DNA of 64,000 bases from Okamejei kenojei (taxonomy: Eukaryota), in contig CM069154.1 in assembly GCA_035221665.1 (NCBI GenBank), forward strand, positions 5,146,001 through 5,210,000. Direction: 5' to 3'. The stretch's first letter is position 1, and each line of letters opens with the position of its first letter. The notes beneath the pieces are model-generated. The model did no database searches and was not told the DNA's origin. It worked only from the letters and a program-made list of their open reading frames with translations. The translations under genes and the position numbers were made by a program. Positions 7,554 through 63,181 of this stretch are shown piece by piece.

Positions 7554-7722
7554 AATATCCTCATCATCTGTCATTTGTTCTGTAATAATATGCCCCTAGA
7601 TATTTTATCTTATTACAGACACTAAGATTGTTGTCAGACAATTTAAAATCAGGATATTTTAGGCTTTTATCCTCTTTGGTTCTACAGACCATAACAGCAC
7701 TCTTACTAGCATTATATTTAAT

Positions 7723-8064
7723 AGAAAACATAGAAACATAGAAATTAGGTGCAGGAGTAGGCCATTCAGCCCTTCGAGCCTGCACGCCATTCAATATGAT
7801 CATGGCTGATCATCCAACTCAGTATCCCGTACCTGCCTTCTCTCCATACCCTCTGATCCCCTTAGCCACAAGGGCCACATCCAACTCACTCTTAAATATA
7901 GCCAATGAACTGGCCTCAACTACCCTCTGTGGCAGAGAGTTCCAGAGACTCACCACTCTCTGTGTGAAAAAAGTCTTTCTCATCTCGGGCCCCTTATCCT
8001 TAAGCTGTGACCCCTTGTCCTGGACTTCCCCAACATCGGGAACAATCTTCCTGCATCTAGCCTG
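7723..8064 (-). mobile_element. CR1 LINE 3' fragment nested in LINE
   Basis: FFTQRVVSLWNSLPQRVVEA motif and (TTTCTATG)n-type tail. It splits the host reading YGLEHD|IKYNASK. Confidence 0.85.
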
Positions 8065-10745: not shown

Positions 10746-12261
10746 TTTTGTATTTTTTTTATTTAATTTTATTTTCTTTTAAATTTTATTTTATTAAAAG
10801 TAAGTACAGGAATATGGCACCAAGGTGCCTAATATATATTGACGTTACATTTTATGTACAGCTTCTTATTGTTATTCTTTTTAATAATGAAAAAGAAAAA
10901 GAGAGAAAAGATAATAAAAGATAGAAACATGTGATATATAGTGTGTGAGAAAGAAAAAAGTGTGAAAGAAGAAAGTTGAAAAAGAAAAAGAAAAAAGAAA
11001 GAGAAAGAGTAGAAAGTAAGAGATTAAGGAGATCATTATCTATATTCGTGACTATCCCTCTCCCAATCCTGAAACAGTTAGCTTCTACCATTTTGTTGCA
11101 CCATATGCTTCCAAAAAATGGACAAATGGAGACCAACTCGTTAAAAAATTGGTCTGTTTTATCTATTAGGAGGAATCGCGTTTCCTCAAGATGTGCAGTG
11201 TCCAACATGTTTGAAATCCACATTTTAAGCATTAGTATGGCTGTATTTTTCCAAAAGTTAAGTATACGTTTTTTTGCCGTTATTAACCGATAATTAAAAA
11301 ATAAAATTTGAGATGAGTTCAATTTATTCCCATCTGCCATTACTCCAAATACAATAATTTCAGTATTAGGTTCCATTTTTATCTTAAGTAATTTTGTAAA
11401 TATTTCAAAAATATCACTCCAGAATTTATAACGTTTTATGCAGGAGACAAAAGAGTGTGTTATCGTTGCATTTTGGGATAGACATTTATCACAAATGGGG
11501 GAAGTATTTGGATAGAATTTATTCAATCTAGTTTTTGAGTAATATAATCTATGTAAAATTTTTATTCAATTTTATCTTACATTAATTGAACATTTATGTA
11601 TATATATCAAATACGTTTCCCATGTTTCCTTCATAATTTTTATCATTAATTCTCATTCCCACTCTTCTCTAAGTGCCTCTGTCAATGGTAAATCTATATT
11701 TAAAATACTATCATATAAATATGATATTAATTTCTGTGAGTCAGCCTTAATGTTCATTGCTTCTTCCAGTGGATCTAAAGTTGTTTTGATATCTTTGTAT
11801 GTATTTCTTCATGAAGTCGCAGATCTGAAGATATTTAAAATATTGGTTATTTTTCAGTTAAAATTTTAATTGGAATTGTTGGAATGATAACAGATTTCCC
11901 ATTTCATACATATCACCGATCCTTTTAATTCCCATTCTTTCCCATTGATTATATGTTTTATCAATAAGAGATGGTTTAAATGAAGGGTTATTCACTATTG
12001 GCATTAACAAAGATAGGTTTCTTAATTTTAAGGATAATTTTATTTGTTTCCAAATTCTTATTGTATCATGTATAATTAGGTTATTCTTATATATTGTGTT
12101 GTTCAGTTTTATCGGGGAGAAGAGGATCGCTCCTATATTACAAGGAGAACAGTCCTCTTTCTCCATTCTTATTCATTCTGTCTGTTGGGTAGAACTGTCC
12201 AAGCAGTAAATTATTCTTAATATGCACTGCCCTATAATAATACAAAAAGTTCGGAAGATGA
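10746..12261 (-). mobile_element. L1-like LINE 3' fragment, unit-A specific
   Basis: C-terminal CCHC region (CDKC...H...C), A-rich tail, 17-bp TSD catatcagtcatctcat (10729-10745, 12262-12278). Empty site at ~50704-50720. Confidence 0.9.
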
Positions 12262-12300
12262 CATATCAGTCATCTCATGAGGATTCTTCGTTCATAAGTT

Positions 12301-12935
12301 ATAGAAACATAGAAAATAGGTGCAGGAGGAGGCCTTTCGGCCCTTTGAGCCAGCATCGCCATTCATTGTGATCAGGGCTGAACGTCCCCAATCAATAACC
12401 TATGCCTGCCTTCTCCCCATATCCCTTGATTCCACTAGCCCCGAGAGCTCCATCTAACTCTCTCTTAAATCCATCCAGTCATTTGGACTCCACTGCCCTC
12501 TGTGGCAGGGAATTCCACAAATTCACAACTCTCTGGGTGAAAAAGTTTTTTCTCACCTCAGTCTTAAATGGCCTCCCCTTTATTCTAAGACTGTGCCCCC
12601 TGGTTCTGGACTCGCCCAACATTGGGAACATTTTTCCTTCATCGAGCTTGTCCAGTCCTTTTATAATTTTATATGTTTCTATAAGATCTCCACTCATCCT
12701 CCTAAACTCCAGTTTAGAGCCTAGTCTTTTCAATCTTTCCTCGTGTGACAGTCCCGCCATCCCATGGATCAATCTCGTGAACCTACGCTGCATTGCCTCA
12801 ATCATAAAGATGTCCTTCCTGAAATTAGGAGTACAAAACTGGACACAATACTCCAGATGTGGTCTTACCAGACCCCTATACAACTGCAGAAGAACCTCTC
12901 CACTCCTGTACTGAAATCCTCTTGCAATGAAGTTC
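12301..12935 (-). mobile_element. CR1 LINE 3' fragment
   Basis: LYRGLVRPHLEYCVQF and RTRGHSLRI...FFTQRVVNLWNSLP. Confidence 0.9.
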
Positions 12936-15466
12936 ATGTGTTAGGGGAGGAATTAGGTCATTTGGCCCATTTTTGTCTACTCCACCATTCAATCATGGCT
13001 GATCTATCTCTCCCTCTCAACCCCATTCTCTTCCCTTCTCCCCATATCGCTTGACACCCATACTAATCGAGAACCTGTGAATCTTAAAAATACCCAGTGA
13101 CTTGGCCCTCATTGGAAACACGGTAAAAGCTTTTCCCTGTACGTGGGAACAAACGACAACAATAAACTGAGCTCATGAATCACCAAAGTTTGTGAGACAC
13201 AAGGAATTGCAGGTGCTGGAATCTTGAGCAAAACACAAAGTGCTGGAGTAACTCAGCAGGTCCGGCAGCATCTGTGGAAGGAATGAACGGACGATGTATA
13301 GGGTTGGGACCTTTCTTCAGATGATGTGTGTGCGTTGGTGTGACAGTGACGGGCAGGGGGAGAGGGTGAGGGGGCGGTTCCACCCCTCCTGCCCCAGTGA
13401 GGGGACGGCAGAGGTTCTGGTCCTGGAGCGATCGTCTTTGGGGAAATGAGCCGCCAGCAGCAGAACCGCCGGTCCCCGTTCACGAGGTCCCCCCCCCCCC
13501 CACACACACACATACACACACACTGCTCCTTGGACAGTGGGCTCATGGACCCCTGTAAATGTGCTCCCCCCCTTCACCCCGACCCCCGGCGATGTGGCAC
13601 CGAGTCACCGTCAGGACCGAGGCCGGGAATTCCCAGGCTGGAATGTTCACATCTGGGAGAGTGAGGAGAGATAGTCAACGTACCTTCAGAAACCTTCAAT
13701 GAGATGGAGGTCCTTTCATTTGCTTGAAAAGATTCCCTTTTTTACTATCACACACCAGTAGCGTCCTTCATCACTCTTCTCCAGGTTGGCGATGGTTACT
13801 GAAAGTATCCGTTGTGTTTTGTTATCAGTCATCGATGTTCTCCCTTGTCGTGGGTCATCAGTAGAAACCACGGTCTTAGATAATGGCCGGTAATAATAAC
13901 CTTTACTCCATAGCTTCCCATACTGTTGTCACTGTATTCCTGACCATACCGACATTCCACAGTGACCGACTGCCCCAACTCTCTCCTCACCTCCTTTGGT
14001 CCAGTTATTCCCCCTGACCCTGTTGGCACATGAATGATGAAAGATCACTCACACTGCAGCAACACAAGCTGAGGTTTAACAATAAAAAACATGTCATTTG
14101 TGCTGTTCAGACAGGTTCATGGTTTTGCATAGATCATGTGTAGCAAGGAACTGCAGGTGCTGGTTTACACCAAAGATTGACACAAAGAGCTGGAGTAACT
14201 CGGCAGGTAGACAAAAATCTGGAGAAACTCAGCTTTGGTGAGGGCGGAAAGCATCTATGTTGACTTTCAGGTCCCCCTTCTCTCCAGAGATGGCAGATCA
14301 GGCAGCATCTCTGGAGTAAAAGGGCAGGTGTCTCTTTTCGCATAGATCCTGACCCTTTGATGTTTTTTCCCGGTTGTTAACCCCTGTCAACATCCCTTTC
14401 CAGTGCAGTTTGGCCCACACTGACCTGTCTGTCCTGGGCCTCCTCCATCCAGAGTGAGGCCACATGCAACGTTGGAGGAACTCGTACCTGCAATTGTCCA
14501 CGCTCAGCAGGTAGTTTTACACTCGTGACAACGGTTTGAAACGTTGAAATTCTCTAATTTTTAACTATCTTTAAACTCTGCAAGTACCTTCCCGTTCTAT
14601 CTTGACCCCCTTTCTTATTCCCACCTTGGGTGAGGGCCAAAGATAGTTTTCCCCCACCTGGTTCTGGAGGTTCTGGTTAGAATTACGATGGGCTCCGGGA
14701 AAATGAGAGCAAATATAAATGCTGAACCGCGGTAACACGGGATATTCCGTATCCAGAGGGCTGAAAGTTGTCTGAGATCCCCCCCTATTTGACTGCAGGA
14801 GTCCTGCGGGACAGTGGGCCCAGTAAAATGAAAAAAAATGAAACTATCACCACCAACCACCAGAACCCCCCCCCCCAGACCCGTCACCCGACCCCCGTGG
14901 GATGTGTGCAACATTCATTCCATCAGGACTGAGGCCGAAATTCCCCCCTGACCCCGAAACAATAATCCAAGTTTCCCAAAACATTGGGAGCGTGAGGAGA
15001 GATCGTCAACGTACCTTCAGAAACCATCCCTTCTCTCCAATGAGATGGAGGTCGATTCATTGTGTGAATGTTACTCCCTTTTGTGTCTATTTTACACACA
15101 CAGTAGAATCGTCCTTCTTTATGTATAGAAACATCTCACTTCTCCAGGTTTTTTTCTGATGGGATTAAAACTAATTAAATGTGGGAACAAACTAATGCTG
15201 GAAATTGTGTTTTGTCTAAATCAGTTATCGATGTTCATTGTCGTGGGTCATCAGTAGAAACCACGGTAGAAGATGACTGGCAAATCATCACCATATGTCC
15301 TACTCCCGCTGTTGTTAATTTGCTCTATATTTTCGAATCATACAGCTGGACATTTCCACAGTGACCGACTGCCCCAACTCTCCCCCCCCCCTCCGGGTTC
15401 CTTACCCCTTGACCCTGTGGGCACATAATTATGAAAGAATCTCACTGCAGCAACACAAGCTGAGTT

Positions 15467-17425
15467 TAAGTAAGTAAGGTAAGTTTGGATTGGCGAAGTA
15501 TTCACATACAAGCAGGGGGAATTTGCCCTTGTGCTCAGCAGTAGGCCCAGGAACCACGCACGTATATATACAACATGACATACATATATATATGTGTGTG
15601 TGTGTCTACAGTTACGATATCACTCAGAAAATATATAAATAAATATATATAATAATAATAATATATTAATGACAAAACACCATTGATTCAAGCATGTGAA
15701 CCAACAAAATATCACATGTCCATCAAAGTGCTACAGATTTTTGGCATGTTGGTAGAGCAACTACTCGTGGATAAAAACAGTTTTTTATGTGGCAGTACTT
15801 TTGACAATGGAGTCGCCATACTGAGAGAAGTGATTCAAAGAGTTTAGAAACATGGCCAGCGTGAGAGGGGTCAGAGGATGATCTTGCCCTGCTCGCTTCC
15901 TGCCCTTGCAGTGTACAGTTCATCAATGGAGGGAAGGTTGCAGCCAATAACCTTCTCAGTATCGGACGATTCGTTGCAGCCTCCAGGTACGTGATCTTGG
16001 TGGCTGAGCCTCTTAAATATAGCCAATGACCAACCTGATGGAGAAGGTGAGAATTCACAGACTCTACGATGGCCGTGTAGGAATTGGACCATATATGCCT
16101 ATTGTGCTTCCTCATGCCGTAGGATACATCCTTGTTTGTGCCATAAATTTGACTGTGGAGTTGATTGCCCCAAGCAAAGGTTGAGAGGTGATTTCCCAGG
16201 AACTTAAACGACTTGCCAAACGTGAAGCTGGGACGTTGCGCCGTGTTTTGATGGTAAGTGAGGTGAGGGGAGAGTCTGCTGTTACAATCTTTCGGATTCT
16301 ATTCTGCACAGAAAAATGTCTTAAATTTGTCTTTGTGCCGCTCTCCTGGGAGCATTGAACACCCTTAGGGCTTCGCGTTTTGCTCCACCAGGATCGCTCG
16401 CTGTGTACGGCCTTCCTCGGCCAACACGGAGGCCTGATTTCTGAAAACAAAGTACAGACCGCATCATCTTCTTCCGCCCACCCGTCCACGGGTTTCAACC
16501 TTAAAACCTTGGGAATATTTAAAGAATATATTAGGGACATTGGATTGTCTGAAGAAGGGTCCCGAGCAGAAACGCAGCCTTGTGGTGTGTGTGTATGTGT
16601 GCGTTGTGCGTGTGTGTGTGTGTGTGTGCTTTCCCAGTGCTGCTTGTGTGTCAGAAGCTGTGTGATCCACCGTGTTCAGGCACAGTCAACTTGGAAAGTT
16701 TGTGTGTGTGTGTGTGTGTAGCTGTGTGGTGTTGTGGTGTATCCTCGCATAGGTCCCCTGGTGGTCTGTGGATGAAGTGCAGGTTTGACTGCATCATCCA
16801 CAGTGTGTATCTGTGTGTGTATGTTGTGTAATAGATCTGTTGTGTGTTGTTTCAACTTGGTGTTTGTCGTGTGTCTTCATGTGTACAGAGGTGTGTGACA
16901 GGCCTGTAGTCATTAAGTAATCCTTGCCTTTTTGTGTGTGTGTGTAGTGGAGACTTGTGGTCAGGCGGCCGCTCAAAGTTTTGCAGTCACCCGACTGGTT
17001 TAAAATGTCTGTGTGCCGGAGACCGGCGGCCAGCTAATTGGCCACAAGCTAAAACCCATAAGAGTCAATGGGGGAAACATTGGCCATCTCTGGAGATTTC
17101 CCTTTTTTGTCCGGGCTGAATACGCCTCTCCTCCTCACTCAAGTATTTGACCCCATTATTGATCCCATTTGATAAGTGATGTTTAAAATTAAAGCACCAA
17201 GAATGCACACCACGTTATTGGTGTACTGGGTGATTTTGGTGTGAAGTAGGTCCAGATAGGAGGGGGGTGCGGCGTAGAAGGAGCCCAGTCCTTTGTGAAC
17301 ATTGTGGGTGTTATTAAGTGACAGTCTTTTCATACGGAGTTGGCCTCAAGTAGGTGTGAAGTGGTGAATGGGAAGGAGAGGAAGTTGGCCGGTCAATGAC
17401 ATACCCGTCTGGCTCGGTTGGTTAC
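15467..17425 (-). mobile_element. Rex1-like LINE, scrambled counterpart of 57334-59143
   Basis: Same position upstream of D1, (ACTT)n tail, recognisable blocks such as EKVIGCNLPSIDELYTARA, but many indels. Confidence 0.7.
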
Positions 17426-17897
17426 ACAATAAAAAACTTGAATTTGTGCTGTACACAGCCACGAGTCTTTCATGGTACCTCGTGGTTTCAAAGATCATCA
17501 CACCGTGCAGGGCATTAGGATTCCCATTTGCACCGGGATTGTTCCCCACACCAGTGAAAGATAGACACTCCCTGAATCTACTGGAGTTCCTCCTTCCCTT
17601 GTGGGCGTGGCTTGACCTGGTGGTGGTCATCTCTGTGAGAAACCAACGGGTTTCAATCACTCTGACAATGTGTTCAATCTCACTACAACCCACATCCCCA
17701 TTGAACTAGTAGAAACAAGGAACTGCAGATGCTGGTTAATACACAAAAGGACACAAAGTGCTGGAATAAATCAACGGGTCAGGAACTATCTCTGGAGAAA
17801 GTGGATAGGTGACAAATCATAGAAACATATAAACATAGAAAATAGGCGCAGGAGTAGGCAATTCGGCCCTTCGAGCCAGCACTGCCATTCAATATGA

Positions 17898-18497
17898 TTT
17901 TCAATCAAAGACTTTATTGTCATTCAAAAATACACCAACAAATGCAAGTTGGAATGAAATTCCGTTGCATCTGGCTCACCGTGTAACATAAAATAACAAA
18001 AGGATAAAATATATAAAAGATAAAATAGATAAAAAGATGAAATAGATAATAGTGGCGGCACATTATATGGAATTCAAGAGTCTGATGGCTCGGGGGGGAA
18101 GAGCTGTTGCAGAACCTGGCCGTTCTGCTCCTTATACTGCGATACCTTTTGCCCGAGGGCAGCAGAGTGAACAGTCCATGATGGAGATGTGTGGGGTCTT
18201 TTATAATGCTGTTGGCCTTGGACAAGCAACGTTTGCGCGCAATGTCCCGGATTGAAGGAAGAGAAGTCCCGATGATTTTTTCAGCCGTCCTCACCACTCT
18301 CTGCACGGACTTCCAGTCGGAGGCTTTGCAGTCCCCAAACCAGACAGATGCAGCTGGTCAAAATGCTCTCTATGGTGCCCCTGTAGAAAGTGGTGAGGAC
18401 GGGATGGGGAGGTGAGCTCTTATCCGGCGCAGAAAGTGCAAACGCTGCTGTGCTCTCTTTATTAGTGATGCGATGTTTTTGTGACAAGGTCAGGCTG
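17898..18497 (-). mobile_element. Rex1/Babar-like LINE 3' fragment inserted in a CR1 tail (paralog ~59552-60153)
   Basis: QRVVRTAEKIIGTSLPSI...LLPSGKRYRSIRSRT. Confidence 0.82.
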
Positions 18498-19119
18498 TTC
18501 ATGGCTGATCATCCAAAATCAGTACCCCTTCTGCTTGCTCCCCCTATCCAATGATTCCATTAGCCCTAAGAGCTATATCTAACTCTCTCTTGAATACATC
18601 CAGTGAATTGGCCTCCACTGCCCTCTGTGGCAAAGAATTCTACAGATTCACACTCTGGGTGAAAAGGTTTTTCCTCATCTGCCTACCCCTTATTCAGGTC
18701 TCAACCCAAAACGTCACCTATCGATGTTCTCCAGAGATGCTGCCTGACCTGCTGCCTTACTCCCAGCACTTTGTGCTTTACTAAAGCTGAATAGCCAGCT
18801 GCCTGTGGTGTCAGTGGGGACTCAGCAGGTCAGGCAGCATCTGTGGACAACATGGATAGGTGACGTTTCAAGTCTAAGACCATGAGATACTGCCTGACCT
18901 ACAGAGTTACGTCAGCACTTTGTGCCCATTGAACTAAACTTCCCGGCCTGTGGTGGAAGCTGGATCTGCCACTGATGTTTCAAACTCCACGTCCACCTGG
19001 AATAATTATGATGTGTCTTTTTCACACAAAGGCTGGTGGGTGTATGGATGAAGCTGCCAGAGGAGGTAATTGAGGCAGGGACTATCCCATCATTTAAGAA
19101 ACAGTTAGACAGGTACATG

Positions 19120-20123
19120 CAGGGCCGGCCTTAGGAGTTGTGGGGCCCAAGTGTAACTATTTTGGTGAGCCCCAGGTTCCCAGTCAAGGTCTAGATTCAT
19201 AGAAATATAATTAAAGTCTATTCTGGACTTTATATCTCTATGGTAGAATGCAAAGTAATCAACATTTGCACTTAAAAAGTGCATGCGACTTAATGGACCA
19301 AACTGATCTAAGCTACTTTTAATATAAAAATTGCATACATGTAAGCCTACAAGTAACAAAACAAAAATGTGTAGATCACCTCTGAAAAGTACATAGTTAC
19401 AATACCACATGTTTTTGTGACTGTGAAATGATTTAAAAAAAAGTAATTTAATTAAATAGATCCTGGAAAACCAATAACCATTGGTGAAAAACCAATCCAG
19501 GCATTAAATTTTGGGCTTCAGCCCCATCCTACCTTTGGACTTCTACCCCATCCTAACTTAGTTGTGTGTGTTAGTTGTCTGTGCGTGATGTGTGTGTGTG
19601 GAGGGAAGGAGAGAAGGTGAGGAAGGAAGGGAGGAAGGGAGATAGGAAGAAGGGAAGGGAGGGAAGAAGGGAAGGAGAGAAGGGAGGGTGAGGGGCCCGT
19701 GGCGGGAGCTGAGGCCGGGTTCCAGCGGGATGGGTGGAGCTGAGGCCGATGTTTGTAAACGTTGCTCCAACCCCCTGCCCGGCCCACCCTGTATTGATCA
19801 CAGTGTCTCCCCGGGGAGAGAGGGGTGGAGCTGGGGCTGTGTGCGTGAAGCACGGTGACTGGAGGGGTGGGAGCGCTGCCGTGAGCGAATGACCCACCTC
19901 CCCCTCTCCCCCTTCACCCCTTTCTCCATTCCCCCTCACACCCCCCTCCCCATCTACCCCTTTCTTCCCCCTCCATCCCTCTACTCTCTCTCCGACCCTC
20001 TCTCCCCTCTCTCCACCCGGGGTAGATCTACCGAGCCGAGAGTAGATTATTCTGGCACGGGGCCCCCTTACTTGCAGGGCCCAATTGGGAGCAATCGGTC
20101 CAAACGGCTTATGGCCGGCTCTG
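19120..20123. mobile_element. Non-autonomous hAT-like DNA transposon (MITE), unit A
   Basis: TIR cagggccggcctta...tatggccggctctg, 8-bp TSD ggtacatg, inserted in a CR1 3' fragment. Confidence 0.82.
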
Positions 20124-23100
20124 GGTACATGGATAGGATAGGTTCATTCATACTAGGAGCAGAATTAGGCCATTTGGCCCATCAAGTCTACTCTCCTCCA
20201 TTCAATCATGGCTGATTTACCTTTCCCTCTCAACTAAATCCTCCTGCCTTCTATCCAAGACTCCTGACACCAGTACTGATCTAGAATCTATCTATCTCTG
20301 CCTTAGAAATATCTATTGACGGCCTCCACAGCCTTCTGTGGCAATGAATTCCACAGTTTCACTACCTTCTGAATAAATAAATTCCTCCTCATCTCCTTCC
20401 TAAATGAACTTTAATTCTTTAATTCTGAAGCTGCGACCTCTGGTCCTAGACTCTCCCACTAGTGGAAACATCCTCCACCATCCACTCTATCCAGGCCTTT
20501 CACTATTTGGTAAGTTTCAGTGAGGTCCACAAGGCAAGGCAAGCTGTAGGTAGTTATCTCCCTCCTCCACAGGGAGCAAGCTGTGTGCAATTTGGCTGCA
20601 CACAACACGACAACAACCGCTGATGGAAGTCTCTACAGGAAGTGTTGAGCAATTCATCATCAGCTCCCCACACAGTACAGAGAGGTCTGTGGTTACAAAT
20701 AATTCAAGGCGCTGGTAAATAATTCTAAAGAACAGAGCATTTTGTAAAACAACGATTTACCTGGTGTGAGACCAACAGCGACAAGAACCAACAGAGCGAC
20801 TGTTCCCCTGGATCTGGGCCGTTTCTGGTGGGTGAATTCTCCCTGTCCCACTGCCATGTCTTGGTTGCGTTGGATCGGTTTGGACCCTGCACTGCGTTTG
20901 AGTTGTCCTCTTCCTCATTCACAACAGAAGTCAAACAGTCAATGTCCGTTTACTCAGGAAACGACTTTGCAGTGGTTCGAGACTAAAGTTGGTGACTCAC
21001 TTGCCACCTCCCCCAGCCTCCTCACCACGGACAATGCACCTATCAGGAGTGAGCTGCAATGCTCTCCTGTTGCCTGGATTGGAGCATCTCCTCGAAGCTC
21101 TGCTTCATTCTGGTGACGTTTGCCCACTTGACTGGCGCTCTGTCCACCACCGCAAACATTCCCTTGCCCACCCCCTCAACCCCCTCCCCAAATGTGGGCA
21201 CACTGTTTCTGAACTTGTATTGGTTTAGGAGGCGGAGATCAGCCATGTTTGAATGGCGGGTAGACTTGATGGGCCGAATGGCCAAATTCTACTCCTGGAA
21301 TGTGTGAGCATTTTCACAGAAAATTGTGAGTCTGTGGAATCCTCTGCCTCAGAGGGCGGTGGAGGCCGGTTGCCTGGATACTTTCAAGAGAGAACTAGAT
21401 AGGGCTCTTAAAGATAGCGGAGTCAGGGGATATGGGGAGAAGGCAGGAACGGGGTACTGATTGTGGATGATCAGCTGGCTCGAAGGGCCAAATAGCCAAT
21501 CCTGCACCTATAGTTTATTGTCTATTGTCTATTGCCACATGCAATCAGATAAGTCCAGTCATGTCACCAGATAAACTCCTTGAAGGACAATTTACATATT
21601 TGAGCATCGGAGACCAGGTAAAGCTTAGTTTGAGGATGTGATTCATAAAATCGTAGAGTGATACAGCACGGAAACAGCTTGCCAATGCCGATGAAGATGC
21701 CCCATGTACGCTAGTCCCTCTTTCGTTTAGTTTAGTTTAGAGATACAATACAGAAACAGGCCCTCTGGCCCACCGTGTCCACACCATCCAGTGATCCCCG
21801 CACAGCAACACAAATGTTTACATTTACACCAACCCAATTAACCTATAAACCTGTACATCTTTGGAGTGTGGGAGGAAACTGAAGTTCTCGGAGAAAACTA
21901 TGTACAGACAAGCACCTGAAGCCGGGATTGAACCCGGGTATCTGCCGCTGTTATGCAATGCAAGGCAGCAACTCTACAGCTGCGCCACCGTAAAAACCAG
22001 GCCTGCATTTGACCCCTGTCCCTACAAACCTTTCCTATCCACGTTCCATGTCCTAATGCTTTTAAATGTTGTTAATAGTACCCGTCCCCACTACCTCCTC
22101 TGGACGTGCTCCTTCCATGTACCCATCAGCTTCTGTGAGATAACATTGTTGAGGTAGGATTAGGGTTGTGTGAGGGAGAAGACAAAGGAGATTGCATATA
22201 CTAGAATCTGGAACAATAGGCAGAACACCTGAAAATCTCAACGGGTCAAGCAGCATCTGTGGAGGCAAAAAGTGCATGTTTGTATTCCGGCCGAGACACT
22301 ACTTCCTGACTGAGGTTGAAAACTGGATGTTTACCAATATATGGCAGAACAAAGAGGAGATGGGTCAAACGCGGGCAAGTGGGACAAGTGGACTAGGGCG
22401 GCACGGTGGCGCAGTGGTAGAGCTGCTGCTTTACAGCGCTTACTGTCGGGTTTGATCCTGACTATGGGTGCTGTCTGTATGGAGTTTGTACGTTTTCCCC
22501 GTGACCGCCTGGGTTTTCTCCAAGATCTTCAGTTTCCTCCCACACTCCAAAAACATATAGGTTAGTTGGTTAGTTGGCTTGGTATAAGTGTAAATAGTCC
22601 CGAGTGCGTGTAGGATAGTGTTAATGCGGTGGGATCACTGTTCGGTGCGAACTCGGTGGGCTGAAGGGCCAGTTTCCACGCTGTATCTCTAAACTAAACT
22701 AAACTAGTTTAGGTTTAAAATAGAAATGCATATGCTGGAAAAATCGATGGTAGACAAAAATGCTGGAGAAACTCAGCGGATGAGGCAGCACCAATGGAGC
22801 GAAGGAATAGGTGATGTTTCGGGTCGAGACCCTTCTTCAGACTGATGTGGAGGTGGGTCTGCGGGGCGGGAAGAAGAAAGGAAGAGGCGGAGACAGTAGG
22901 CTAATTGGCTTCTGTAGGTTAATTGGCTTCTGTAAATTGTACCTAGTGTGCACGATAGAACTAGTGTATGGGTGATTGCTGGTCAGAGCGAACTTAGTGG
23001 GGCAAAGGGCATGTTTCCATGCTGTATCTCTAAACTAAACTAAACATGACAGGAACAAGCCCTCGGGCCCACAATGTCATTGCCGAACGTAATGCCAGGA

Positions 23101-39903: not shown

Positions 39904-40165
39904 TTAAAGGCCCGTTGTCGTGGAGACGGCACTGGGTGGGAGTTGCAGGCGTCGGCCTGGTGTGGCGATGTTGTCGGTGCCTCCACCACCGCCGCTCCGT
40001 GCCGCTGCAGGACATGTCCGATCCGCACGCTCGTCCACGATTTCTGTGGGACCTCCAGCGGCACCCGATCCACCGGCTACTGCAGGGCCTCCAGCAGCCC
40101 ACTCGCGTTCATCTCTTCCCTCCACCACTGCCGACCCCATCTCCAAGGTCTCGGCTGTTTTTTTC
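39904..40165 (-). CDS. Copy B exon 6 (probable): Gly/Ala-rich cytoplasmic tail ending TTGL*
   Basis: Acceptor ttttaattgttattcaag in phase 2 gives TFK-R-KKTAETLEMG... The frame is open in both copies with only a 3-nt indel. AATAAA lies ~200 nt downstream (39697-39702, minus strand). Confidence 0.62.
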
Positions 40166-46100: not shown

Positions 46101-49100
46101 GTTATTGTAGCTCCTGAAACTGTTTGTAAAATAAACCGATCAGATGTGATGGAAAGCCATTCATCATAAAACATTTGTAACCTCCCACCAACTGGAGATT
46201 CGTCCACAGTTTCTTTAAGAACAGAATAAAGTTTTTGTACCTCTCCATATGAACATGGTGGTCTCCTTCTCCCGTATACGGGTGAACATTAGGCTGTGTT
46301 GGATGGTAATATTTTCTTACCATATTCCTGCCTCTGTTTCCAAAATCAAATCCCCTTCTTGACGTAAAATACCTTTTTTGTCCAAAAACGTAGGTCTCAT
46401 GTAGCTAATAGATTTAGCCTCTTCATCCATTCCTCTTATTTGTTTAGGCAGGTTTTCTCCAAATAGATAACCAGGAGCTTGAACACCACTTGATCGACAC
46501 AGACCTGCAAATCTCGGATGAAATATGGGCCGAATCACAATTTTCCTCATGCAATTAATTTGCACAATAAGCCCAATGTATCTCTTTGGATTTTAACCAT
46601 TTCCGACCCTTCCATTTGCTTTCCAAAAGCAGTAATGGCAGCTGAAATCAGTTTGAGGATTCTTTGAAACCTTATTTCTTGTCCTCTCATGACTGATGTC
46701 ATAGGTGTCCATATAGATGGATTAACCGTACGTACCTTCAATGAGGTGCAATTTTCCGGTGTTTTATATAATTCTGCTGTGTCAGCCATCACAGAATCTT
46801 GAAGTTGGTGAGATAGCATATAATTAATACTGGCAGCTAGGTTTTCTTCCATAGTCTCACCACTTCCTTCAGGGAAAAGCAAAATCTCTTGCCATATCAG
46901 GCACATATGGCCTTTTCTTTTTTATTTGTGGTGTGCACTCATAATCCACATCACCACTTTCAGGGTCTGACTTTTGCAGCCCTGATACTCCTGGAACTTC
47001 ATCAAATAAGACTTCCTCCACCCTTAATCCTGGGTCTGGAGTTTCAAATTCCCAATTTGGCACATAGCCATATTCTGGATATTCAAACCCCTCAGGGTCA
47101 GTTTGGGAAAGTTCTGGGTACTTGGACCCTTGTCTCATAATATTTTGGAGTACTCTCTCCATATGTTCCATTTTAAGCCATATAGCTTTATTATCCGGAG
47201 GACTTTCATTATCAGAGTCATCATCAGAAACCACAGGCCTCACAGATTTCTTTTTACTTTTCCCAGGAACATTTTCCTCCGTGGTTTGTGTTTCTGGAGA
47301 AATTATAGTCTCACTACCAGGTGAATCAACGGCCACCGGTATTGGAACCGGCTCCGCACTAATCTCTTGTCCCGACTCTTTAGCTTCTCCCCGGGACGAT
47401 CTTTTAACCCGCGAAATCTTCCTCTGAGACTTCTCCATTTAAAATTTTTTATTACCTAAGCTGGATGAGTACGCCAGCGTGACTCTGATTTTTTGAAATT
47501 TTTACTTTCATTTTTGCTGGTTCTACTTGCCAGCGTAATGTCTTTTTTAGAACGTCCCCTAAAAATTTCATTGCACTTACCTGCGGGTCCGTTCTGACCG
47601 CTGAGAGGAGCTGCACTCTGCAGCTCTTGCTTCTGCCGTCAGCGTCGACGTAATGCCGTTCCAGCGCCAGGCGGGGCTTCTTCACGTAGTCACTCACGTG
47701 ACTCCGAAGTAAAATATCGTGTGGGTCGCCTCCCTTATGCAGTGGAGTAACATTGGTACACTTCCATGCGGAAGGGAGGGTACAAGTTGAGAAGGACAAA
47801 TTAAACAGGTCGCATAGTGGGTACATTAGAATATTAACTCCTAACTTAATGAATTTAGTCTCAATACCAGCTGGTCCAGATCCACAATCATCCTTTAATT
47901 CATTAATAGCATGTTGAACGTCAACAGGTTTTATTTTTTGAAAAGAAAAAGAGCTTCTACACGTAGAGGTAGCTGGAAAGTCACAAGTACTTTGTTGCAA
48001 ACTGTAACCTGGCCATACTATTTTTGTGGCAAACCAGTGGTTTGCATCTTGCAGTGTATCCTCTGTATTTCTGTTCATGAAGTCTTCTGCGGACAGTGGT
48101 TATTGTCAAATCCCCACCTGACTCCTAAAGAGTGTTTCTTATCTGTTGGACAGGGTGTTTGGGTTTTTTTTTTTATTATAGAGAGAAGTCTTCTGTTATC
48201 AGCTTTGGAGGTCTTCCTTGGCTTGCCAGTCCCTTTGCGATTAGTAAGCTCACCAGTGCTCTCTTTCTTCTCAATGATGTTCCAAACAGTTGATTTTGGA
48301 AAGCCTAATGTTTGGATGATGTTTCCAACAGTTTTATTCTTGTTTCTCAGTCTCATAATGGCTTATTTGAGTCATTGGCACAACTTTGGTCCTCATGTTG
48401 ATAAACAGCAATGAAAGTTTCCAAAGGTGATGGAAAGACTGGAGGAAAGATTAGGTGCTGAGAGCTTTTTATACCTGCATTAAAGAGGCAATTAAACACA
48501 CCTGAGCAATTACAAACACCTGTGAAGCCTTGTGTCCCAAAATGTATGGTGCCCTGAAATGGGGGGACTATGTAAAAACACAGATGTAATTTCTACATGG
48601 TGTAACCAAAATGTATAAAAATACCCTTTAATAAAATCTGACAATGTGCACTTTAACCACATGTGATTTTTTCTATTACCAATCTCAAATTGTGGAATAC
48701 AGAGGCAAATAAATAAATTATGGGTCTTTGTCCCAAACATTATGGAGGGCACTGTATGTCCACACTTTATCTCTAAATTCTAAAGTGAACTCCCATCATT
48801 TCCAATTTAATTTAATGTGAACACCAGAGTGAAGAGATTGCACAACTTTTACCTTTTAAAAGTTGTCACACAGCTGATGGAAGCCAGGAAGAGAAGCAGA
48901 ACTCCAAAGAGTACCCAGCGTAACACACCCCAAACACGGCGAACATTCAACACGATGTCCCTGGAAATACAAGGAAATATTATTACTTCCACACAGAGTT
49001 ATCAAAGATCAACGTTGGGGAATTTTTTCATCATATTGCACACGGAATCATTCAGTGTGATCCAAGGTTGTGGCGTAGACATTGGTGAGATGTTTATATC

Positions 49101-52100
49101 GCAACATGCACCCATTCCTTGGAGGTGTTCCATGACTACATACATTAACAACTTAGATGTTCATGTTGGTGGTCAGACATACAGCACGAAAACATGTCCT
49201 TTGACCCAATTTCCGCACGCTGACCAAGATGCCCTTACCTACACTAGTCCCATCTGCCGGCCTTAGATGTTAATGTTGGAAGTATGATTAACGAGTTTAC
49301 AGATTACACCAAAATTGTATCATTTTGGATAGTACAATAATCATAGACCACAGAGGGATGAGAAGCAACTGGTATGTTGGGCAGAGCAATGCCAGCAGGT
49401 ATTGAACCGTGATAAGTGTGAAGTTATTTGTTTTTGGCATCAAATAAGGGTAGACATTCACAACGGTAGGGCCACTGGGTGTACTAAGGACAGAGGGACT
49501 TTAGTCAGGGCCAAGGAGTATTTATCAATGGACTGGAATGTGATCAGCCACGCTTTCTCAAAGTACTGGGACTGATTTTACCGACAATAAGATACGATCC
49601 TACCGGACCACCGGTGCTGTCAGTACATAGTTTGTATGTTCTCCCTGTGATTGCAAGAGTTTACTCTGGATTCTCCAATTTCCTCCCACATTCCAAAGAC
49701 GTGCGGGTTTGTAGTAAATTGCCCCTAGTGTGTAGAACAGAACTGGTGTATGGGGTGATTGCTGCTCAGAGCGGACTCAGTGGGCCAAGGAATCTTTTAA
49801 CTGAGTTGAACTGATCTTAACTAATTTGTTCTCAGTTGAGGCTGTGTTGGCTCTTCGAGTTACCAACCTGTTTGAAAGTATTGAACCAGGAGACTCAGTG
49901 GAACTTGCTGCCTCGGTGGTTGGTGCATCTTGAGGCAGGGTGGTCAGAGCCCTTGTGCTTATTGTTGTAGAGGTGGTGATGACCATATCTGGGCGGTTTG
50001 TTTGAGACCCTTGTGGAGATAAAGTGAATGAAGTTTTTGAACATTAAATGTCTGAAAGCAAGTTCTGTTCCACTTCAGTGATGTGGGGGAGATGCTTCAG
50101 TTGGGAGTGCTCTTGCTCTGTGTGGAGAGATTCCTGGGTTCAAATCCCAAACCAGTGTGGCCCCATGCAGCGGATTCCCCCTACCCCCTTCTCACCTCCC
50201 ACCAAACACCCCCCTCCCTCCCCCATGAACCCCCGGGGATGTGGCACCGAGTCACCGTCAGGACCGAGGCCGAGAATTCCAAGCTGGAATTTCACATGTG
50301 TCGAATATTCGTGGTTTGAATCCCACTCCATACATTTGGACAAAGATCCTTCTGAGGCCACCATAGATGGACCAAGCACCTTGGTCTAGACAGGAGGCTC
50401 ACCCATTTTTAAGATGCCACATGATGGCCGCAAGCATTCAGAGACTTCTTTCATGCCCTTCAGAGTCCCACAGGCTGTGTTATCTGCCTGCTGCTAGAGT
50501 TAGGCACATGTCTTCTACGTTGGAGAAGAACTTGGGAGCGGGAGGATCCATGGACTATTTTCATTACGTGGACTGAATTGGAAATAATGCAATTTGGTTG
50601 GAGGTATCTACCTGAAACATTAACTGTCATTCTCTCTCCACAGATGCTGCCCGACCTGTTGAGTATCTCATCTTGTACAGTTTGTGCGGCTCAGTTTAAA
50701 GTCCATATCAGTCATCTCATAAGGATTCTTCGTTCATAATTTATAGGAACATAGAAAATAGTTGCAGGAAGAGGCCATTCGGCCCTTCGAGCCAGCACCG
50801 CCATTCACTGTGATCTGGGTTGAACATCCACAATCAATAACCCGTGCCTGCCTTCTCCCCATATCCTTTGATTCCACTAACCCCTAGAGCTCTATCTAAC
50901 TCTCTCTTAAATCCATCCAGTGATTTGGCCTCCACTGCCCTCTGTGGCAGGGAATTCCACAAATTCACAACTCTCTGGGTGAAAATGTTTTTTCTCACCA
51001 CAGTCTTTTTTTTGTTTTTTTGTTTTGTTTATTTTATTAGAAGTTAATACAGTAAAAAACAATACAGTGGCACCTAATTTTAGGTGACAACTATGTCATA
51101 ACGTAATACATTCTATGTACAACCTCTAGTTTTATGTTTTTGAAAAGGAAATTAAAAAAAGGCAAGAAATAGAGAGAAGAAAAAGAGGAAAAATAGATAG
51201 TAGAAAATAGAAAAACCTGAAGTGTGCATATAAGAAAAGAAAACATAGAAAGTAGAAATAGGAGAAAAAGAATTTTCAAATCTTTGTTCGGAGATGTAAT
51301 TCTACCCACGACCTGAGCTGAAATCAGTAATCTTAACGGTACTGCTGCATCACATGATTCCAAAAAGTCGATGAAAGGGGACCAACTCCTTAAGAATTGG
51401 TCATATTTATCTATTAGGCGGAGTCTCATTTCTTCAAAGTGAGCTATGTCCGTCATATTACAAATCCACATTTTAATAGTTGGTATAGCTGTATTTTTCC
51501 AAAATTTAAGTATCAATTTCTTTCCAATTATTAACCCATAATTAAAGAATACTTTTTGGTCTTTGTTTAACTTGATATCTTCTACTATTATTCCAAATAT
51601 AATCCATTCCGTATTTGGTTCTATTCTTGACTTGAAGAGCTTTGTAAATATATCAAATATATCGCTCCAAAATTTATTCAACTTTATACATCCTACAAAT
51701 GAATGTGATATATTGGCATTTTGAAACAAACATTTATCGCATCTAGGAGAAACATTTGAGTTGAATTTATTTAACCTCGTTTTTGAATAATATAGTCTAT
51801 GTAATAGTTTAAATTGAATTAGATTATGTCTTGCATTAATGGAACAATTATATGTGTTCATCAGATACTTTTCCCATTTATCTTTCGGAATCTTTATCAT
51901 TAGTTCATGTTCCCAATCTTCTCTTAGTGCCTCTGTTGAGGGTAATTCTCTATTTAATATACTATTATAAAAATAGTTTTTGTGAATTTTATCGGTGAGA
52001 ACAAGATCGTTCCTATATCGTACGGGAAACACTCCCCTTTCTCCATTCTTATCCACTCCGACTGGTGAGTGGAGTTATCCAACCAGTACATTATGTTCTT

Positions 52101-55100: not shown

Positions 55101-58100
55101 CGGTAAAAGCTTTTCCCTGTACGTCGGAACAGACGACAACAATAAACTGAGCTCATGAATCACCAAAGTTTGTGAGACACAAGGAATTGCAGGTGCTGGA
55201 ATCTTGAGCAAAACACAAAGTGCTGGAGTAACTCAGCAGGTCAGGCAGCATCTGTGGAAGGAATGAACGGACGATGTATAGGGTTGGGACCCTTCTTCAG
55301 ATGTTGTGTGTGTGTGGGTGTGACAGTGACGGGCAGGGGGAGAGGGTGAGGGGGCGGTTCCACCCTCCTGCCCCAGTGAGGGGACGGCAGAGGTTCTGGT
55401 CCCGGAGCGATCGTCTTTGGGGAAATGAGCCGCCAGCAGCAGAACCGCCGGTCCCCGTTCACGAGGTCCCCCCCCCCCCCCCCCCCCCCCCAAACACACA
55501 CATACACACACACACTGCTCCTTGGACAGTGGGCTCATGGACCCCAGTAAATGTGCTCTCCCCCTTCACCCCGACCCCCGGCGACGTGGCACCGAATCAC
55601 CGTCAGGACGAGGCAGGGAATTCCCAGGCTGGAATGTTCACATCTGGGAGAGTGAGGAGAGATAGTCAACGTACCTTCAGAAACCTTCAATGAGATGGAG
55701 GTCCTTTCATTGCTTGAAAAGATTCCCTTTTTTACTATCACACACCAGTAGCGTCCTTCATCACTCTTCTCCAGGTTGGCGATGGTTACTGAAAGTATCC
55801 GTTGTGTTTTGTTATCAGTCATCGATGTTCTCCCTTGTCGTGGGTCATCAGTAGAAACCACGGTCTTAGATAACAGGTAATAATCACCTTTACTCCATAG
55901 CTTCCTGTTGTCACTGTATTCCTGACCATACCGACATTCCACAGTGACCGACTGCCCCAACTCTCCCCTCACCTCCTTGGGTCCAGTTATTCCCCTTGAC
56001 CCTGTTGGCACATTAATGATGAAAGATCACTCACACTGCAGCAACACAAGCTGAGGTTTAACAATAAAAAACATGTCATTTGTGCTGTTCAGACAGGTTC
56101 ATGGTTTTGCATAGATCATGTGTAGCAAGGAACTGCAGGTGCTGGTTTACACCAAAGATTGACACAAAGTGCTGGAGTAACTCGGCAGGTAGACAAAAAT
56201 GCTGGAGAAACTCAGCTGGTGAGGGCGGAAGCATCTATGGAGTGAAGGAAATAGGCGACGTTTCGGGTCAAGACCCTTCTTCAGACTGATGGCAGATCAG
56301 GCAGCATCTCTGGAGTAAAAGGGTAGGTGGCCTTTTCGGGTCGGGACCATTCTTGATCTCCTGGTTGCCAACCCTGTCAACATCCCTTCCCATTCCCACA
56401 CTGACCTGTCTGTCCTGGGCCTCCTCCATTGCCAGAGTGAGGCCACATGCAGGTTGGAGGAACCGCACCTCATATTACGCTCAGGTAGTTTACAACCCAA
56501 CGGTTTGAACGTTGAATTCTCTAATTTTAACTATCTTCTACTAACCTGCGCCCTCCCCTTCCCCCTTGACCCCTTTTTCCACCCTGGTGGGTGAGGGGCC
56601 GGTTTTCCCCCACCTGCCCCAGTGAGGGGGCGGCAGAGGTTCTGGTCCCGGAGCGATCGTCTTTGGGGAAATGAGCCTCAGCAGCAGAACCGCCGGTAGC
56701 TGGGACCTTCCGTGGGGCTGGTGTCTGACATCCCCCCCCTATACTGCTCCTGGGACAGTGGGCCCTTCATGTGGCTCCACGGGCCGGGAGCCCAGTAAAT
56801 GATGTATGCACCACCACCACCCCCCCCCCCCCCCCCCCCTGTCCACCTCGACCCCCGGGGATGTGGCACCGAGTCACCATCAGGACTGAGGCCGAAATTC
56901 CCAGGCTGGAATTTTCATATCTGGGAGTGTGAGGAGAGACCGTCAACGTACCTTCAGAAACCATCAATGAGATGGGGGTCAATTCATTGTGTGAATGTTT
57001 TCCCTTTGCTATCACACACCAGTAGTGTCCTTCATCACTCTTCTCCAGGTTGTCGATGGTTACTGAAACGATCTGTTGTGTTTTGTCATCAGTTATCGAT
57101 GTTCTCCCTTGTCGTGGGTCATCAGTAGAAACCACGGTAGAAGATGACTGGTAATCATCACCTTTACTCCACAGCTTGTTGTAATCTCTATATTTCGAAT
57201 CATACTGACATTCCACAGTGACCGACTGCCCCAACTCTCCCCTCACCTCCTCGGGTTCAGTTTCTCCCCTTGACCCTGTGGGCACATTAATGATGAAAGA
57301 TCACTCACACTGCAGCAACACAAGCTGAGGTTTAAGTAAGTAAGTAAGTAAGTAAGTTTATTGGCCAAGTATTCACATACAAGGAATTTGCCTTGGTGCT
57401 CCGCCCACACGTAACAACATGACATACAGTGACAGTTACGAATCACTCAGAAAATACTAAACATTAATAATAATAAAACATTAATGACAAAACACCATTG
57501 ATCAAGCATGTGAACCAACAAAATATCAGATCAAAGGGAGGCTACAGATTTTTGGCTGTTGAGTAGAGCAACTACTCGTGGATAAAAACAGTTTTTATGT
57601 GGCAGCTTTGACAGCCCGGAGTCGCCTTCCAGAGGGAAGTGATTCAAAGAGTTTGTGGCCAGGGTGAGAGGGGTCAGAGATGATCTTGCCTGCTCGCTTC
57701 CTGGCCCTTGCAGTGTACAGTTCATCAATGGAGGGAAGGTTGCAGCCAATAACCTTCTCAGCTGATCGGACGATTCGTTGCAGCCTCCAGGTGTCGTGCT
57801 TGGTGGCTGAGCCAAACCAGACCATGATGGAGAAGGTGAGAACAGACTCTACGATGGCCGTGTAGAATTGGACCATCATTGCCTGTGGCAGATTGTGCTT
57901 CCTCAGCTGCCGTAGGAAGTACATCCTCTGTTGTGCCTTTTTGACTGTGGAGTTGATGGTCGCCCCACACTTAAGGTCCTTGGAGGTGATGGTTCCTAGG
58001 AACTTAAACGACTCCACAGATGTGACTGTGGTGTTGTTGATGGTGAGTGGGGTGAGGGGAGGGGGAGCTCTCCTAAAGTCTACAATCAATTCCACTGTCT

Positions 58101-61100: not shown

Positions 61101-63181
61101 AATTAAATAGATCCTGGAAAACCAATAACATTGGTGAAAAACCAATCCAGGCATTAGATTTTGGGCTTCAGCCCCATCCTACCCTTTGGGCTTCTACCCC
61201 ATCCTAACTTAGTTGTGTGTGTTAGTTGTCTGTGCATGATGTGTGTGTGGGAGGGAAGGAGAGAAGGGAGGGAGAGGGCCCGTGGCGGGAGCTGAGGCCG
61301 GGGTCCGGGCGGATGGGTGTGAGCTGAGGCCGATGTTTGTAAACGTCGCTCCAACCCCCGGCCCGGCCCTCCCTGTATTGTTCACCGCGTCTCCCCGGGG
61401 AGAGAGAGGGGTGGAGCTGGGGCTGTGTGGGAAGCACGGCGACTGGAGGGGCGGGAGCGCTGCCGTGAGCGAACGACCCACCTCTCCCTCTCCCCCTTCT
61501 TCCCCTCCTCCGTTCCCCCTCCCCGTCTACCCCTTTCTTCCCCCTCCACCCCTCTACTCTCTCTCCGCCCCTCTCTCCCCCCCTCCACCCGGGGTACATC
61601 TACCTGAGCCGAGAGTAGATAACTCTGGCGTGGGGCCCCCTTACTCGCGGGGCCCAATTGGGAGCAATCGGTCCAATCGGCTTAAGGCCGGCCCTGGGTA
61701 CATGGATAGGACAGGTTTGTAGGGACATGGACCTAACATGGACAGGTGGGACTAGTGTTGCTGAGACATGTTGGCCGGTGTGGGCAAGTTGGGCTGAAGG
61801 GCCTGTTTCTACACTGTATCACTATGACTCTAACACATGTGAAACTCTGCAGATTCAGGATCTGGGATGGAGACACATGATCAGATCAGTCCAGGTCCGC
61901 TCACAAGCCACAAGACAAATGCCTTGAAGGAGAACTCAGAGGCTGGGGAAAGCACAGTGTGGAGAACAGCTCGAGCAGCAGAGTCTGTAAAGCAGCTGTT
62001 TTTTTCTCAGGAGAGATTACCTCAACTTCTCCAAATGCTAAATTGGACAGTCACTCTGGTGCTTCCTCATTTGAGATGCCCACCTGTTCCCAATGGCTGG
62101 CTCTCACAGGTTTTTTCTTTGAATGTGCTAAGATTTAGATTCAACATTTCCCATTGCAGTGCGTGGAGGGAGTGCCGTGTGTCTTTGATGGACACTAAAT
62201 GCTGGAGTAACTCAGCGGGTCAGGCGGCATCTCTGGAGAGAAGCAATGGGTGATGTTTCAGGTCGAGACCCTTCTTCAGACCAACAGTCAGCGAGGGAGG
62301 AAGTCAAGAGATATGCAAGTGGTAAAGCATTTAGCTGATCTGCTGTCAAGTCACTGAGAAAGTTCACCTGGAGATAGTTTGCACCAGAATAGTGGAGCAA
62401 ACTCTCTGGTCCAGGGCAAGAGTTACCCCAACACCCAAGATCAACAAGGCCAGCTGTCGGATCATTTTCTACAGGGAGTTAGCTGTGTGCAATTTGGCTG
62501 CGCACAGCATCACAACAGTCATTAGTGCAGGAAAGAACAAGTCTGCAAGCACTTTATCTTTAGCAGCTCGTAGCCCAGTAGTCTGCTCTGTGGCTCAAAA
62601 TAATTCAAGGTGTTAGTAAATAATTCTGAAGAACAGATCATAAGTTAATTAGTACTAGGAGCAGAATTAGGCCATTTGGCCCATCAAGTCTACTCTCCAC
62701 CATTCAATCATGGCTGATCTATCTTTCTGTCTTCTCCCAGGACTCCTAACACCAGTACTGATCAAGAATCGATCTATCTCGGCCTTAGAAATATCTATAG
62801 ACAGCCTCCACAGCCTTCTGTAGCAATGAATTCCACAGATTCACCACCTAACTAAAGAAATTCCTCCCCATCTCCTTCCTAAAGGAACGTTCTTTAATTC
62901 TGAGGCTGTGACCTCTGATCCTAGACTCTCCGCAAGTGGAAACATCCTCCACCATCCACTCTATCCAGGCCTTTCACTATTTGGTAAGTTTCAGTGAGGT
63001 CCACAAGGCAAGGCAAGCTGCAGATATTCAAGGCAATGGTATATAATTCTAAAGGACAGAGCATTTTGTAAAACAACGATTTACCTGATGTGAGACCAAC
63101 AGCGACAAGAACCAACAGAGCGACTGTTCCCCTGGATCTGGGCCGTTTCTGGTGGGTGAATTCTCCCTGTCCCACCGCCAT
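39904..63181 (-). CDS. CD300/CMRF35/pIgR-like type I membrane receptor, copy B, 6 exons, 419 aa, apparently intact
   Basis: Exons 63085-63181, 56952-57275, 55675-56001, 49868-50009, 48853-48960 and 39904-40165 all have GT/AG boundaries with compatible intron phases (1,1,1,2,2). Lengths 97+324+327+142+108+262=1260 nt, with no internal stop. Confidence 0.85.
41387..47984 (-). mobile_element. 5'-truncated L2/CR1-group LINE inserted in Tc1 and itself split by DIRS
   Basis: PLHKGGDPHDI|NNYRPIS, FLDLTKAFD, YADDT, KYLGVWLD. aagt duplicated at the junctions. Confidence 0.85.
42780..47716 (-). mobile_element. Full-length DIRS1-like tyrosine-recombinase retrotransposon (frameshifted)
   Basis: Gag-like 46317-47438; RT/RNase H 44828-46207 (LPNGLSSAPRLFTK, YLDD, INYLELL); methyltransferase-like 44315-44770 (DLFASRLN, YAFPPF); YR 43420-44318 (AQRVQTL, HSTRAAATS). 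36-bp inverted repeats 42853-42888 and 47653-47688; ICR 43008-43120. Confidence 0.95.
48853..48960 (-). CDS. Copy B exon 5: transmembrane segment with an intramembrane Arg
   Basis: RDIVLNVRRVWGVLRWVLFGVLLLFLASISCVTTFK. Acceptor atttccag, donor AG|gtaaaa, 108 nt, phase 2-2. Too short to appear in the ORF track. Confidence 0.85.
49868..50009 (-). CDS. Copy B exon 4: Ser/Thr/Pro-rich mucin-like stalk
   Basis: GSQTNRPDMVITTSTTISTRALTTLPQDAPTTEAASSTESPGSILSN. Acceptor tttatctccacaag, donor AG|gttggt (gttagt in copy A), phase 1-2. Confidence 0.82.
51008..54539 (-). mobile_element. L1-like LINE (most of ORF2), unit-B specific, inserted in a CR1 fragment
   Basis: NIYAPN, GGDFNC, SRIDYF, SDHSP, KTPGPDGF, DAEKAFD, RQGCALSP, CDKC. 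TSD cagtctt. The host CR1 is uninterrupted in unit A (~12559). Confidence 0.92.
54540..54915 (-). mobile_element. CR1 fragment (continues 50745-51007 across the L1)
   Basis: LVGPHLECCVQFWSP...RTRGHSLRIKG. Confidence 0.88.
55675..56001 (-). CDS. Copy B exon 3: V-set Ig domain D2
   Basis: ITGPKEVRGELGQSVTVECRY...KLWSKG...RTSMTDNKTQRILSVTIANLEKSDEGRYWC, a typical CD300/pIgR-like V domain. 327 nt, phase 1-1. Confidence 0.93.
56250..56288 (-). ncRNA. Minimal hammerhead ribozyme motif in the D1-D2 intron, sense to the gene
   Basis: Minus strand reads AGU-CUGAAGA-A-GGGUC-UU-GACCC-GAAACGUC^GCC. Core intact, stem I weak. Confidence 0.5.
56952..57275 (-). CDS. Copy B exon 2: V-set Ig domain D1
   Basis: GQSVTVECQY...KLWSKG...SVTIDNLEKSDEGHYWC: B-strand Cys, C-strand Trp and DxGxYWC motif. 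Acceptor cccacag, donor G|gtacgt, 324 nt, phase 1-1. Confidence 0.93.
57334..59143 (-). mobile_element. Rex1/Babar-like LINE, 5' truncated, in intron 1
   Basis: [39 protein letters not shown], (ACTT)n tail. It splits the intron motif gaggttt|aacaataaaaaacatg, which is contiguous upstream of D2. Confidence 0.9.
60775..61696. mobile_element. Non-autonomous hAT-like DNA transposon (MITE), unit B
   Basis: TIR caggaccggcctta...taaggccggccctg, 8-bp TSD ggtacatg (60767-60774, 61697-61704). Confidence 0.85.
63085..63181 (-). CDS. Copy B exon 1: signal peptide MAVGQGEFTHQKRPRSRGTVALLVLVAVGLTS
   Basis: ATG in gacATGg context, basic n-region plus hydrophobic core, donor CAG|gtaaat in phase 1 matching the Ig exon. 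Confidence 0.85.

Follow-up and report, generated by a model that had tools for sequence, protein, structure and literature searches.

The C-C' disulfide is widely used as a hallmark of CD300, pIgR and TREM domains. A gene of the skate Okamejei kenojei carries serine at both cysteine positions of this bond in each of its two V domains, which raises the question of how the bond was lost and what its loss did to the receptor. An earlier note on this DNA proposed that a paired Cys-to-Ser change freed the C-C' loop and could define a distinct subfamily with a different ligand surface. We analyzed the gene within the window, i.e., the whole 64,000-nt stretch of DNA, together with related domains from other species. 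Our reading, to which we give a probability of about 0.58, is that the bond was lost stepwise, and that it was likely dispensable once the FG loop of the subfamily had left the calcium/lipid site known from CD300lf. Recurrent loss was likely tolerated rather than founding one subfamily, and the predicted ligand groove is likely altered.

The gene, referred to as gene B (Table 1), is a skate CD300/pIgR-like receptor gene with an open frame, and its product is predicted to belong to the activating, adaptor-coupled class. When spliced, gene B gives a single frame of 419 residues, and its inner junctions are all AG/GT. Both domains match the Pfam V-set family (E 8e-14 for D1 and 3e-12 for D2) and have the B-F disulfide and C-strand Trp of the V-set fold, while the C-C' disulfide (CxnC) of CD300/pIgR/TREM-type V domains is present in neither. 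All seven matches of a first protein search were skate proteins named pIgR-like or CMRF35-like (71-77% identity). No match came from a search restricted to proteins of comparable length, and an atlas search gave generic V-set/pIgR-like clusters only. Matches of sequencing reads to the gene were swamped by an intron repeat and contained no splice joint.

The assignment to the activating type follows from a charged residue in the membrane segment (Arg) and a tail with no ITIM, the last 110 residues containing no Tyr. Known Arg-type receptors couple to ITAM adaptors, and by analogy the membrane Arg of gene B may recruit an FcR-gamma-like one. Skate and shark paralogues have either the short-tail form or ITIM-like tails, which is the layout of paired receptors. 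An ITIM-type exon was not found in the window, where both gene copies, A and B, are of the short-tail type. The Arg-Trp motif of the membrane exon (48853-48960 and 9050-9165) recurs in shark, stingray, manta and sturgeon paralogues.

Table 1. Features of gene B and its tandem copy A, in window positions.
Feature	Position	Strand	Remarks
Gene B exon 1, leader	63085..63181	-	97 nt, phase 1; tblastn with skate homologues 88-97% identity; GT donor
Gene B V domain D1 exon	56952..57275	-	324 nt, AG/GT, phase 1-1; B-F Cys kept, C-C' positions Ser/Ser
D1 Ser1 codon AGT	57166..57168	-	C-strand Cys column, equals CD300lf Cys36
D1 Ser2 codon TCT	57142..57144	-	C'-strand Cys column, equals CD300lf Cys44
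Gene B V domain D2 exon	55675..56001	-	327 nt, AG/GT, phase 1-1; also Ser/Ser
D2 Ser1 codon AGT	55892..55894	-	
D2 Ser2 codon TCT	55868..55870	-	
Gene B Ser/Thr/Pro-rich stalk exon	49868..50009	-	
Gene B transmembrane exon, short-tail type	48853..48960	-	Arg near outer end, hydrophobic stretch
Gene B last exon	39904..40165	-	tyrosine-free tail and stop codon
Tandem copy A of the gene	3530..20857	-	six parts as in gene B
Copy A leader	20761-20857	-	
Copy A D1	about 15013-15410	-	many small indels
Copy A D2	about 13670-14020	-	WS..S too; frameshifted as assembled
Copy A stalk	about 10085-10250	-	
Copy A transmembrane	about 9050-9165	-	
Copy A tail	3530-3790	-	

The window contains the two gene copies and repeats only. 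The whole gene region is tandemly duplicated (1-21307 and 28071-63632, ~85-96% identity in shared blocks), and copy B carries several retroelement insertions of its own. The last intron of gene B holds a retroelement (43420-47438) with reverse transcriptase, RNase H and recombinase-like frames recognized by eye, which we take to be a DIRS/tyrosine-recombinase-like element. Aligned to copy B, the 1.25-kb stretch that holds the D1 of copy A opens 121 gaps and has 75 mismatches, whereas the flanks open 3-20 gaps per block. In blocks of ~0.8-1.25 kb across 14229-17600, copy A opens 121, 56 and 89 gaps against copy B, with few mismatches. Such dense gap openings, unlike the flanks, make copy A look like an unpolished long-read consensus; its broken D1 may be an assembly error, and the copy was left out of the analysis for its apparent poor consensus. 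Within gene B, the intron sequences just upstream of D1 (57276-57335) and of D2 (56002-56061) differ at 1 of 59 bases and the exons at 40 of 324. Near-identical introns beside diverged exons suggest either gene conversion or a recent shuffling of exons that encode older types of domain.

The substitutions themselves are real. On the minus strand D1 reads KLW-S-KGDDYQS-S-STVV and D2 reads KLW-S-KGDYYLL-S-KTVV, which confirms the WS-x7-S reported for both V exons, and the serines fall in the Cys columns when aligned with pair-keeping orthologues. The core B-F pairs are retained as the earlier note stated, and their residues (55/119 and 163/227) are the only ectodomain Cys of the spliced gene. 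Three other skate species show Ser/Ser as well, in 14 of 18 domains. Both D1 serine codons are matched by a run X14 contig that spans 57109-57236 and has one differing letter, listed at 57206; for D2, the comparison with reads covers part of the differences. The serines are therefore not an assembly error.

For the spread of the loss, 81 distinct domains were cut from named species and 62 were kept, comprising an elasmobranch clade of 52 (support 100/100 against the sturgeon outgroup) and 10 sturgeon and paddlefish domains as the outgroup; 19 were dropped (bichir, echidna, rodent and more distant shark paralogues). The tree uses 110 columns with the two Cys columns excluded, and many of its forks are weak. 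Gene B is nested within the elasmobranch clade, where 22 domains carry the pair, and thus descends from pair-carrying domains. The residues at the two positions are C/C in 22 of the 52 domains, S/S in 16, C/S in 7, R/S in 4, and T/S, R/A and C/R in 1 each, so that 30 lack the pair. None of the 20 skate domains keeps it, and 16 of these are S/S. The first Cys alone remains in four electric ray domains, in sawshark and sevengill shark, and in one domain each of catshark and Amblyraja, and both are absent in sawfish, one horn-shark and one catshark domain; which residue stands at position 2 hinges, for sawfish and sevengill shark, on a one-residue gap, and it is non-Cys either way. Both are kept in stingray and mantas (13/13), white shark, zebra shark, smooth-hound and cloudy catshark.

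These states require at least five changes inside the subfamily, and six when the sturgeon and paddlefish outgroup is included. The tree of 62 domains did not confirm that WS-x7-S is confined to one clade. A topology that unites the 30 pairless elasmobranch domains in a single clade is rejected (p-AU 8.6e-7), as is one that unites the 20 S/S domains, four of which are sturgeon/paddlefish D2 (p-AU 4e-6). Three or more losses in sharks arose independently of the gene B lineage. The motif occurs in 4 of the 10 sturgeon and paddlefish domains, all of D2 type, and judging from the sequences it arose there independently. Each such domain adjoins one with both Cys. The change was not a paired one either, since Cys1-only domains number eight and Cys2-only domains zero, and position 1 can also be Arg or Thr; the eight-to-zero excess points to stepwise loss. 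In the domains with a lone C-strand Cys, this residue may be free for dimer formation, or tolerated as buried.

One part of the earlier account stands. The skate domains form one clade (100/97) with D1-like and D2-like groups inside it, and as none keeps the pair, the disulfide was lost before the D1/D2 duplication, as had been proposed. The tree joins the skate domains with those of electric ray and sawfish, which also lack the pair (91/80). The species tree groups sawfish with stingrays and mantas. This grouping is not rejected for the domains (p-AU 0.24), and the batoid loss may therefore be one event with a regain, or several.

The bond had also been described as family-defining, which is too strong. 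It is absent in 37 of 396 other family domains, and a preprint on zebrafish NILTs reports 39 of 127 domains without the CxnC motif (10.1101/2022.04.21.489081), while the x7 Cys pair is described as typical of teleost pIgR (PMC9321927). The loss rate is higher in the subfamily (5 changes over 10.1 tree units) than outside it (13 over 199.6; ratio 7.6, p 0.001), with the two sets sampled differently. With representatives only there are 3 changes over 6.0 units (p 0.01), and p is 0.07 when the gene B lineage is discounted.

Our data give no indication that the loop was freed by the loss. The variability of CC' relative to the domain mean is 1.6 in 20 bondless skate domains, compared with 1.8 in 13 stingray and manta domains and 1.7 in 9 shark domains that have the bond. 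The claim that C-C' is among the segments differing most between D1 and D2 was overstated; the segment does differ (3/7 residues), but it ranks third after BC (7/10) and FG (6/12). The model of D1 has a mean pLDDT of 91.9, rising to 94-95 over residues 31-50, with strands at 31-36 and 44-48, and its best match is mouse CD300lf (TM 0.87, rmsd 1.8, 36% identity). Several of the 15 aligned sequences on which it was built carry the Cys pair, and its ordered loop is thus partly inherited from bonded relatives; a single-sequence model of D2 reached pLDDT 50. Human pIgR D2 is described as having no C-C' bond and a similar C/C' strand orientation (Stadtmueller et al., PMC4786434), while mouse pIgR D2 has both Cys in our alignment. 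Together, the D1 model and human pIgR D2 suggest that the fold and the C/C' hairpin would stay in place without the bond. The F-strand Trp (CD300lf Trp89) is kept in all 34 bondless domains and in 9 of 28 bonded ones; the 19 replacements are in stingray, manta, white shark and smooth-hound. A link between this Trp and bond loss was not significant, as only five independent pairs were available, and neither was one with the aromatic content of the loop.

The possible consequence for ligand binding can be read from mouse CD300lf. Its phosphocholine cleft is described as lying between the CC' and FG loops with the Cys36-Cys44 bond as its floor, and its Asp98 as helping to hold Ca2+ (PMC6166816). 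The idea that the disulfide belongs to the ligand surface is thus borne out for mouse CD300lf, whereas that of a single subfamily defined by WS-x7-S is not. We mapped the CD300lf numbering via rodent CD300, aligned to the G strand. At 91 and 98 the gene B domains carry Val and Asn, so that by alignment they have neither the FG-loop Ca2+ site (Asp98) nor the disulfide-floored cleft of the CD300lf type. In the subfamily as a whole, 51 of the 52 domains have another residue in place of Gly91 and 48 in place of Asp98, which is Asn in 40 domains, and neighbouring shark paralogues keep both Cys and a CD300lf-like FG loop (C-G-I-x3-G-x-D). Across the wider family, bond and Asp motif are unlinked (161/198 against 14/23, Fisher p 0.49; independent pairs not significant). 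All four subfamily domains with Asp98 are bondless, and sturgeon/paddlefish D2 lost the bond and kept Asp98 (4/4). The stingray and manta domains (13/13) keep the pair despite Asn98, which indicates that the bond is not free to go everywhere. A link between cleft remodelling and bond loss has moderate support and is offered as a hypothesis, given the sampling, the missing family-wide Asp link, the sturgeon D2 and the stingray counter-cases.

The sequence of events we propose begins with the FG loop, which would have moved away from the CD300lf calcium/lipid site in the subfamily and left the C-C' bond dispensable. The bond would then have been lost because it was likely already dispensable in the elasmobranch subfamily, with the C' Cys probably going first and the C-strand Cys, by then an orphan, afterwards. 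The CC'-FG cleft would acquire a polar floor, and the Ca2+-dependent phospholipid-headgroup site would be altered or gone. Ligand choice would be set mainly by the variable BC, FG and CC' loops, with or without the bond.

A different explanation is that loss was selected, with bond removal reshaping the cleft floor for a new ligand during pathogen-driven diversification of paired receptors. In horn shark (Heterodontus francisci), an ITIM-tailed protein is C/C and a short-tail paralogue with a membrane Arg is R/S, and of the five domain residues that differ between them by eye, two are the Cys and one is the next residue. However, quick removal of an orphan Cys accounts for this pair without a new ligand, and the near-identical proteins fit either process. 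Losses do recur faster in the subfamily than elsewhere, and the changes that separate D1 from D2, 35 of them non-synonymous and 5 synonymous (pN 0.141, pS 0.071), cluster in the BC, FG and CC' loops, but pN does not exceed pS significantly (Fisher p 0.15). A lone Cys1 also persists in eight domains, and loss does not track receptor type, as ITIM-tailed skate, sawfish and electric ray proteins are pairless too and a catshark short-tail protein keeps the pair. These same counter-examples rule out that bond loss is tied to activating versus inhibitory type. Overall we regard selected loss as unlikely, if worth keeping in mind. We are slightly more doubtful of a bolder version, in which the C-C' disulfide of sharks and rays is a repeatedly flipped switch on the cleft floor, an ancient subfamily having abandoned the Ca/phospholipid site and then shed the bond at least five times, wholesale in skates, in favour of a new ligand class.

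Plain drift of a non-essential bond, unlinked to the FG loop or cleft chemistry and with the excess of losses due to sampling around the query, would be consistent with the missing family-wide Asp98 link, with bond absence in other family domains, human pIgR D2 and zebrafish NILTs, and with a loss-rate excess that is weak after correction. Yet the pair persists in 91% of the domains outside the subfamily, across 200 tree units, compared with 42% inside, across 10, and the shark losses independent of the query lineage also speak against it; we consider drift improbable. Lower still is our confidence in one paired Cys-to-Ser event from which a separate subfamily arose with a loop both freed and more variable, which appears very improbable. 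The uniformly pairless skate clade and its pairless electric ray and sawfish neighbours agree with it, but the rejected single clade, the motif shared with sturgeon and paddlefish, the Cys1-only intermediates and a loop no more variable than in bonded relatives do not, and D1 and D2 are further apart in BC and FG than in C-C'. As a family-wide account it is largely refuted, and it remains only in the sense that S/S is the usual skate state. Stepwise loss of a bond that had likely become dispensable is the reading we retain.

The nearest known relatives are elasmobranch pIgR-like and CMRF35-like proteins (XP_055510911.1 and XP_055510917.1 in Leucoraja, XP_032898103-105.1 in Amblyraja, XP_078276461.1 in Rhinoraja), which are 71-77% identical to D1 and share the leader, stalk, membrane exon and pair loss. 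They differ in having 1-4 domains and, in some, an ITIM-type tail, and their names come from automatic annotation. Mammalian CD300 (mouse CD300lf/CLM-1, human CD300a, c and f) offers the best fold match and shares the V domain, F-strand YWC, stalk and paired forms. Unlike CD300, gene B lacks the Cys36-Cys44 bond, has Gly91 changed to Val, Asp98 to Asn and a longer FG loop, and combines two domains instead of one with an Arg-type membrane segment. The pIgR of human, mouse and trout gave the best PDB sequence matches, and pIgR shares tandem V domains and, in human D2, the missing bond; however, gene B has tandem near-copies of one domain type and belongs to a family with paired signalling tails, and its pIgR name is automatic annotation only. 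The D2 of sturgeon and paddlefish CMRF35/pIgR-like proteins has the same WS-x7-S but is a separate lineage with Asp98 kept, and the "atypical" zebrafish NILT domains that lack CxnC are a separate lineage as well. The MDIRs (modular domain immune-type receptors) of clearnose skate (Cannon et al., 2006) are described in PMC3031540 as an activating/inhibitory multigene family and likened there to CD300, TREM and pIgR, with MDIR2-4 cited as ABC86796/7/9. Among the named matches of our protein searches, no protein was named MDIR. Our literature search, which covered a minority of subscription papers, found no paper on this loss in skates or sharks, and Cannon et al. (2006) may already show the serines.

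Collectively, the skate-wide, recurrent loss of a typical but non-essential disulfide is real, while loss of the bond as such was already known from human pIgR D2 and zebrafish NILTs. A skate family without the bond, together with repeated losses in sharks, shows that at the base of jawed vertebrates this hallmark is readily lost, and cautions against relying on it for family assignment. The natural pairs with and without the bond can serve to probe its role in stability and ligand binding. In particular, the C/C inhibitory and R/S activating-type twins of horn shark, five residues apart, are a natural experiment on the bond.
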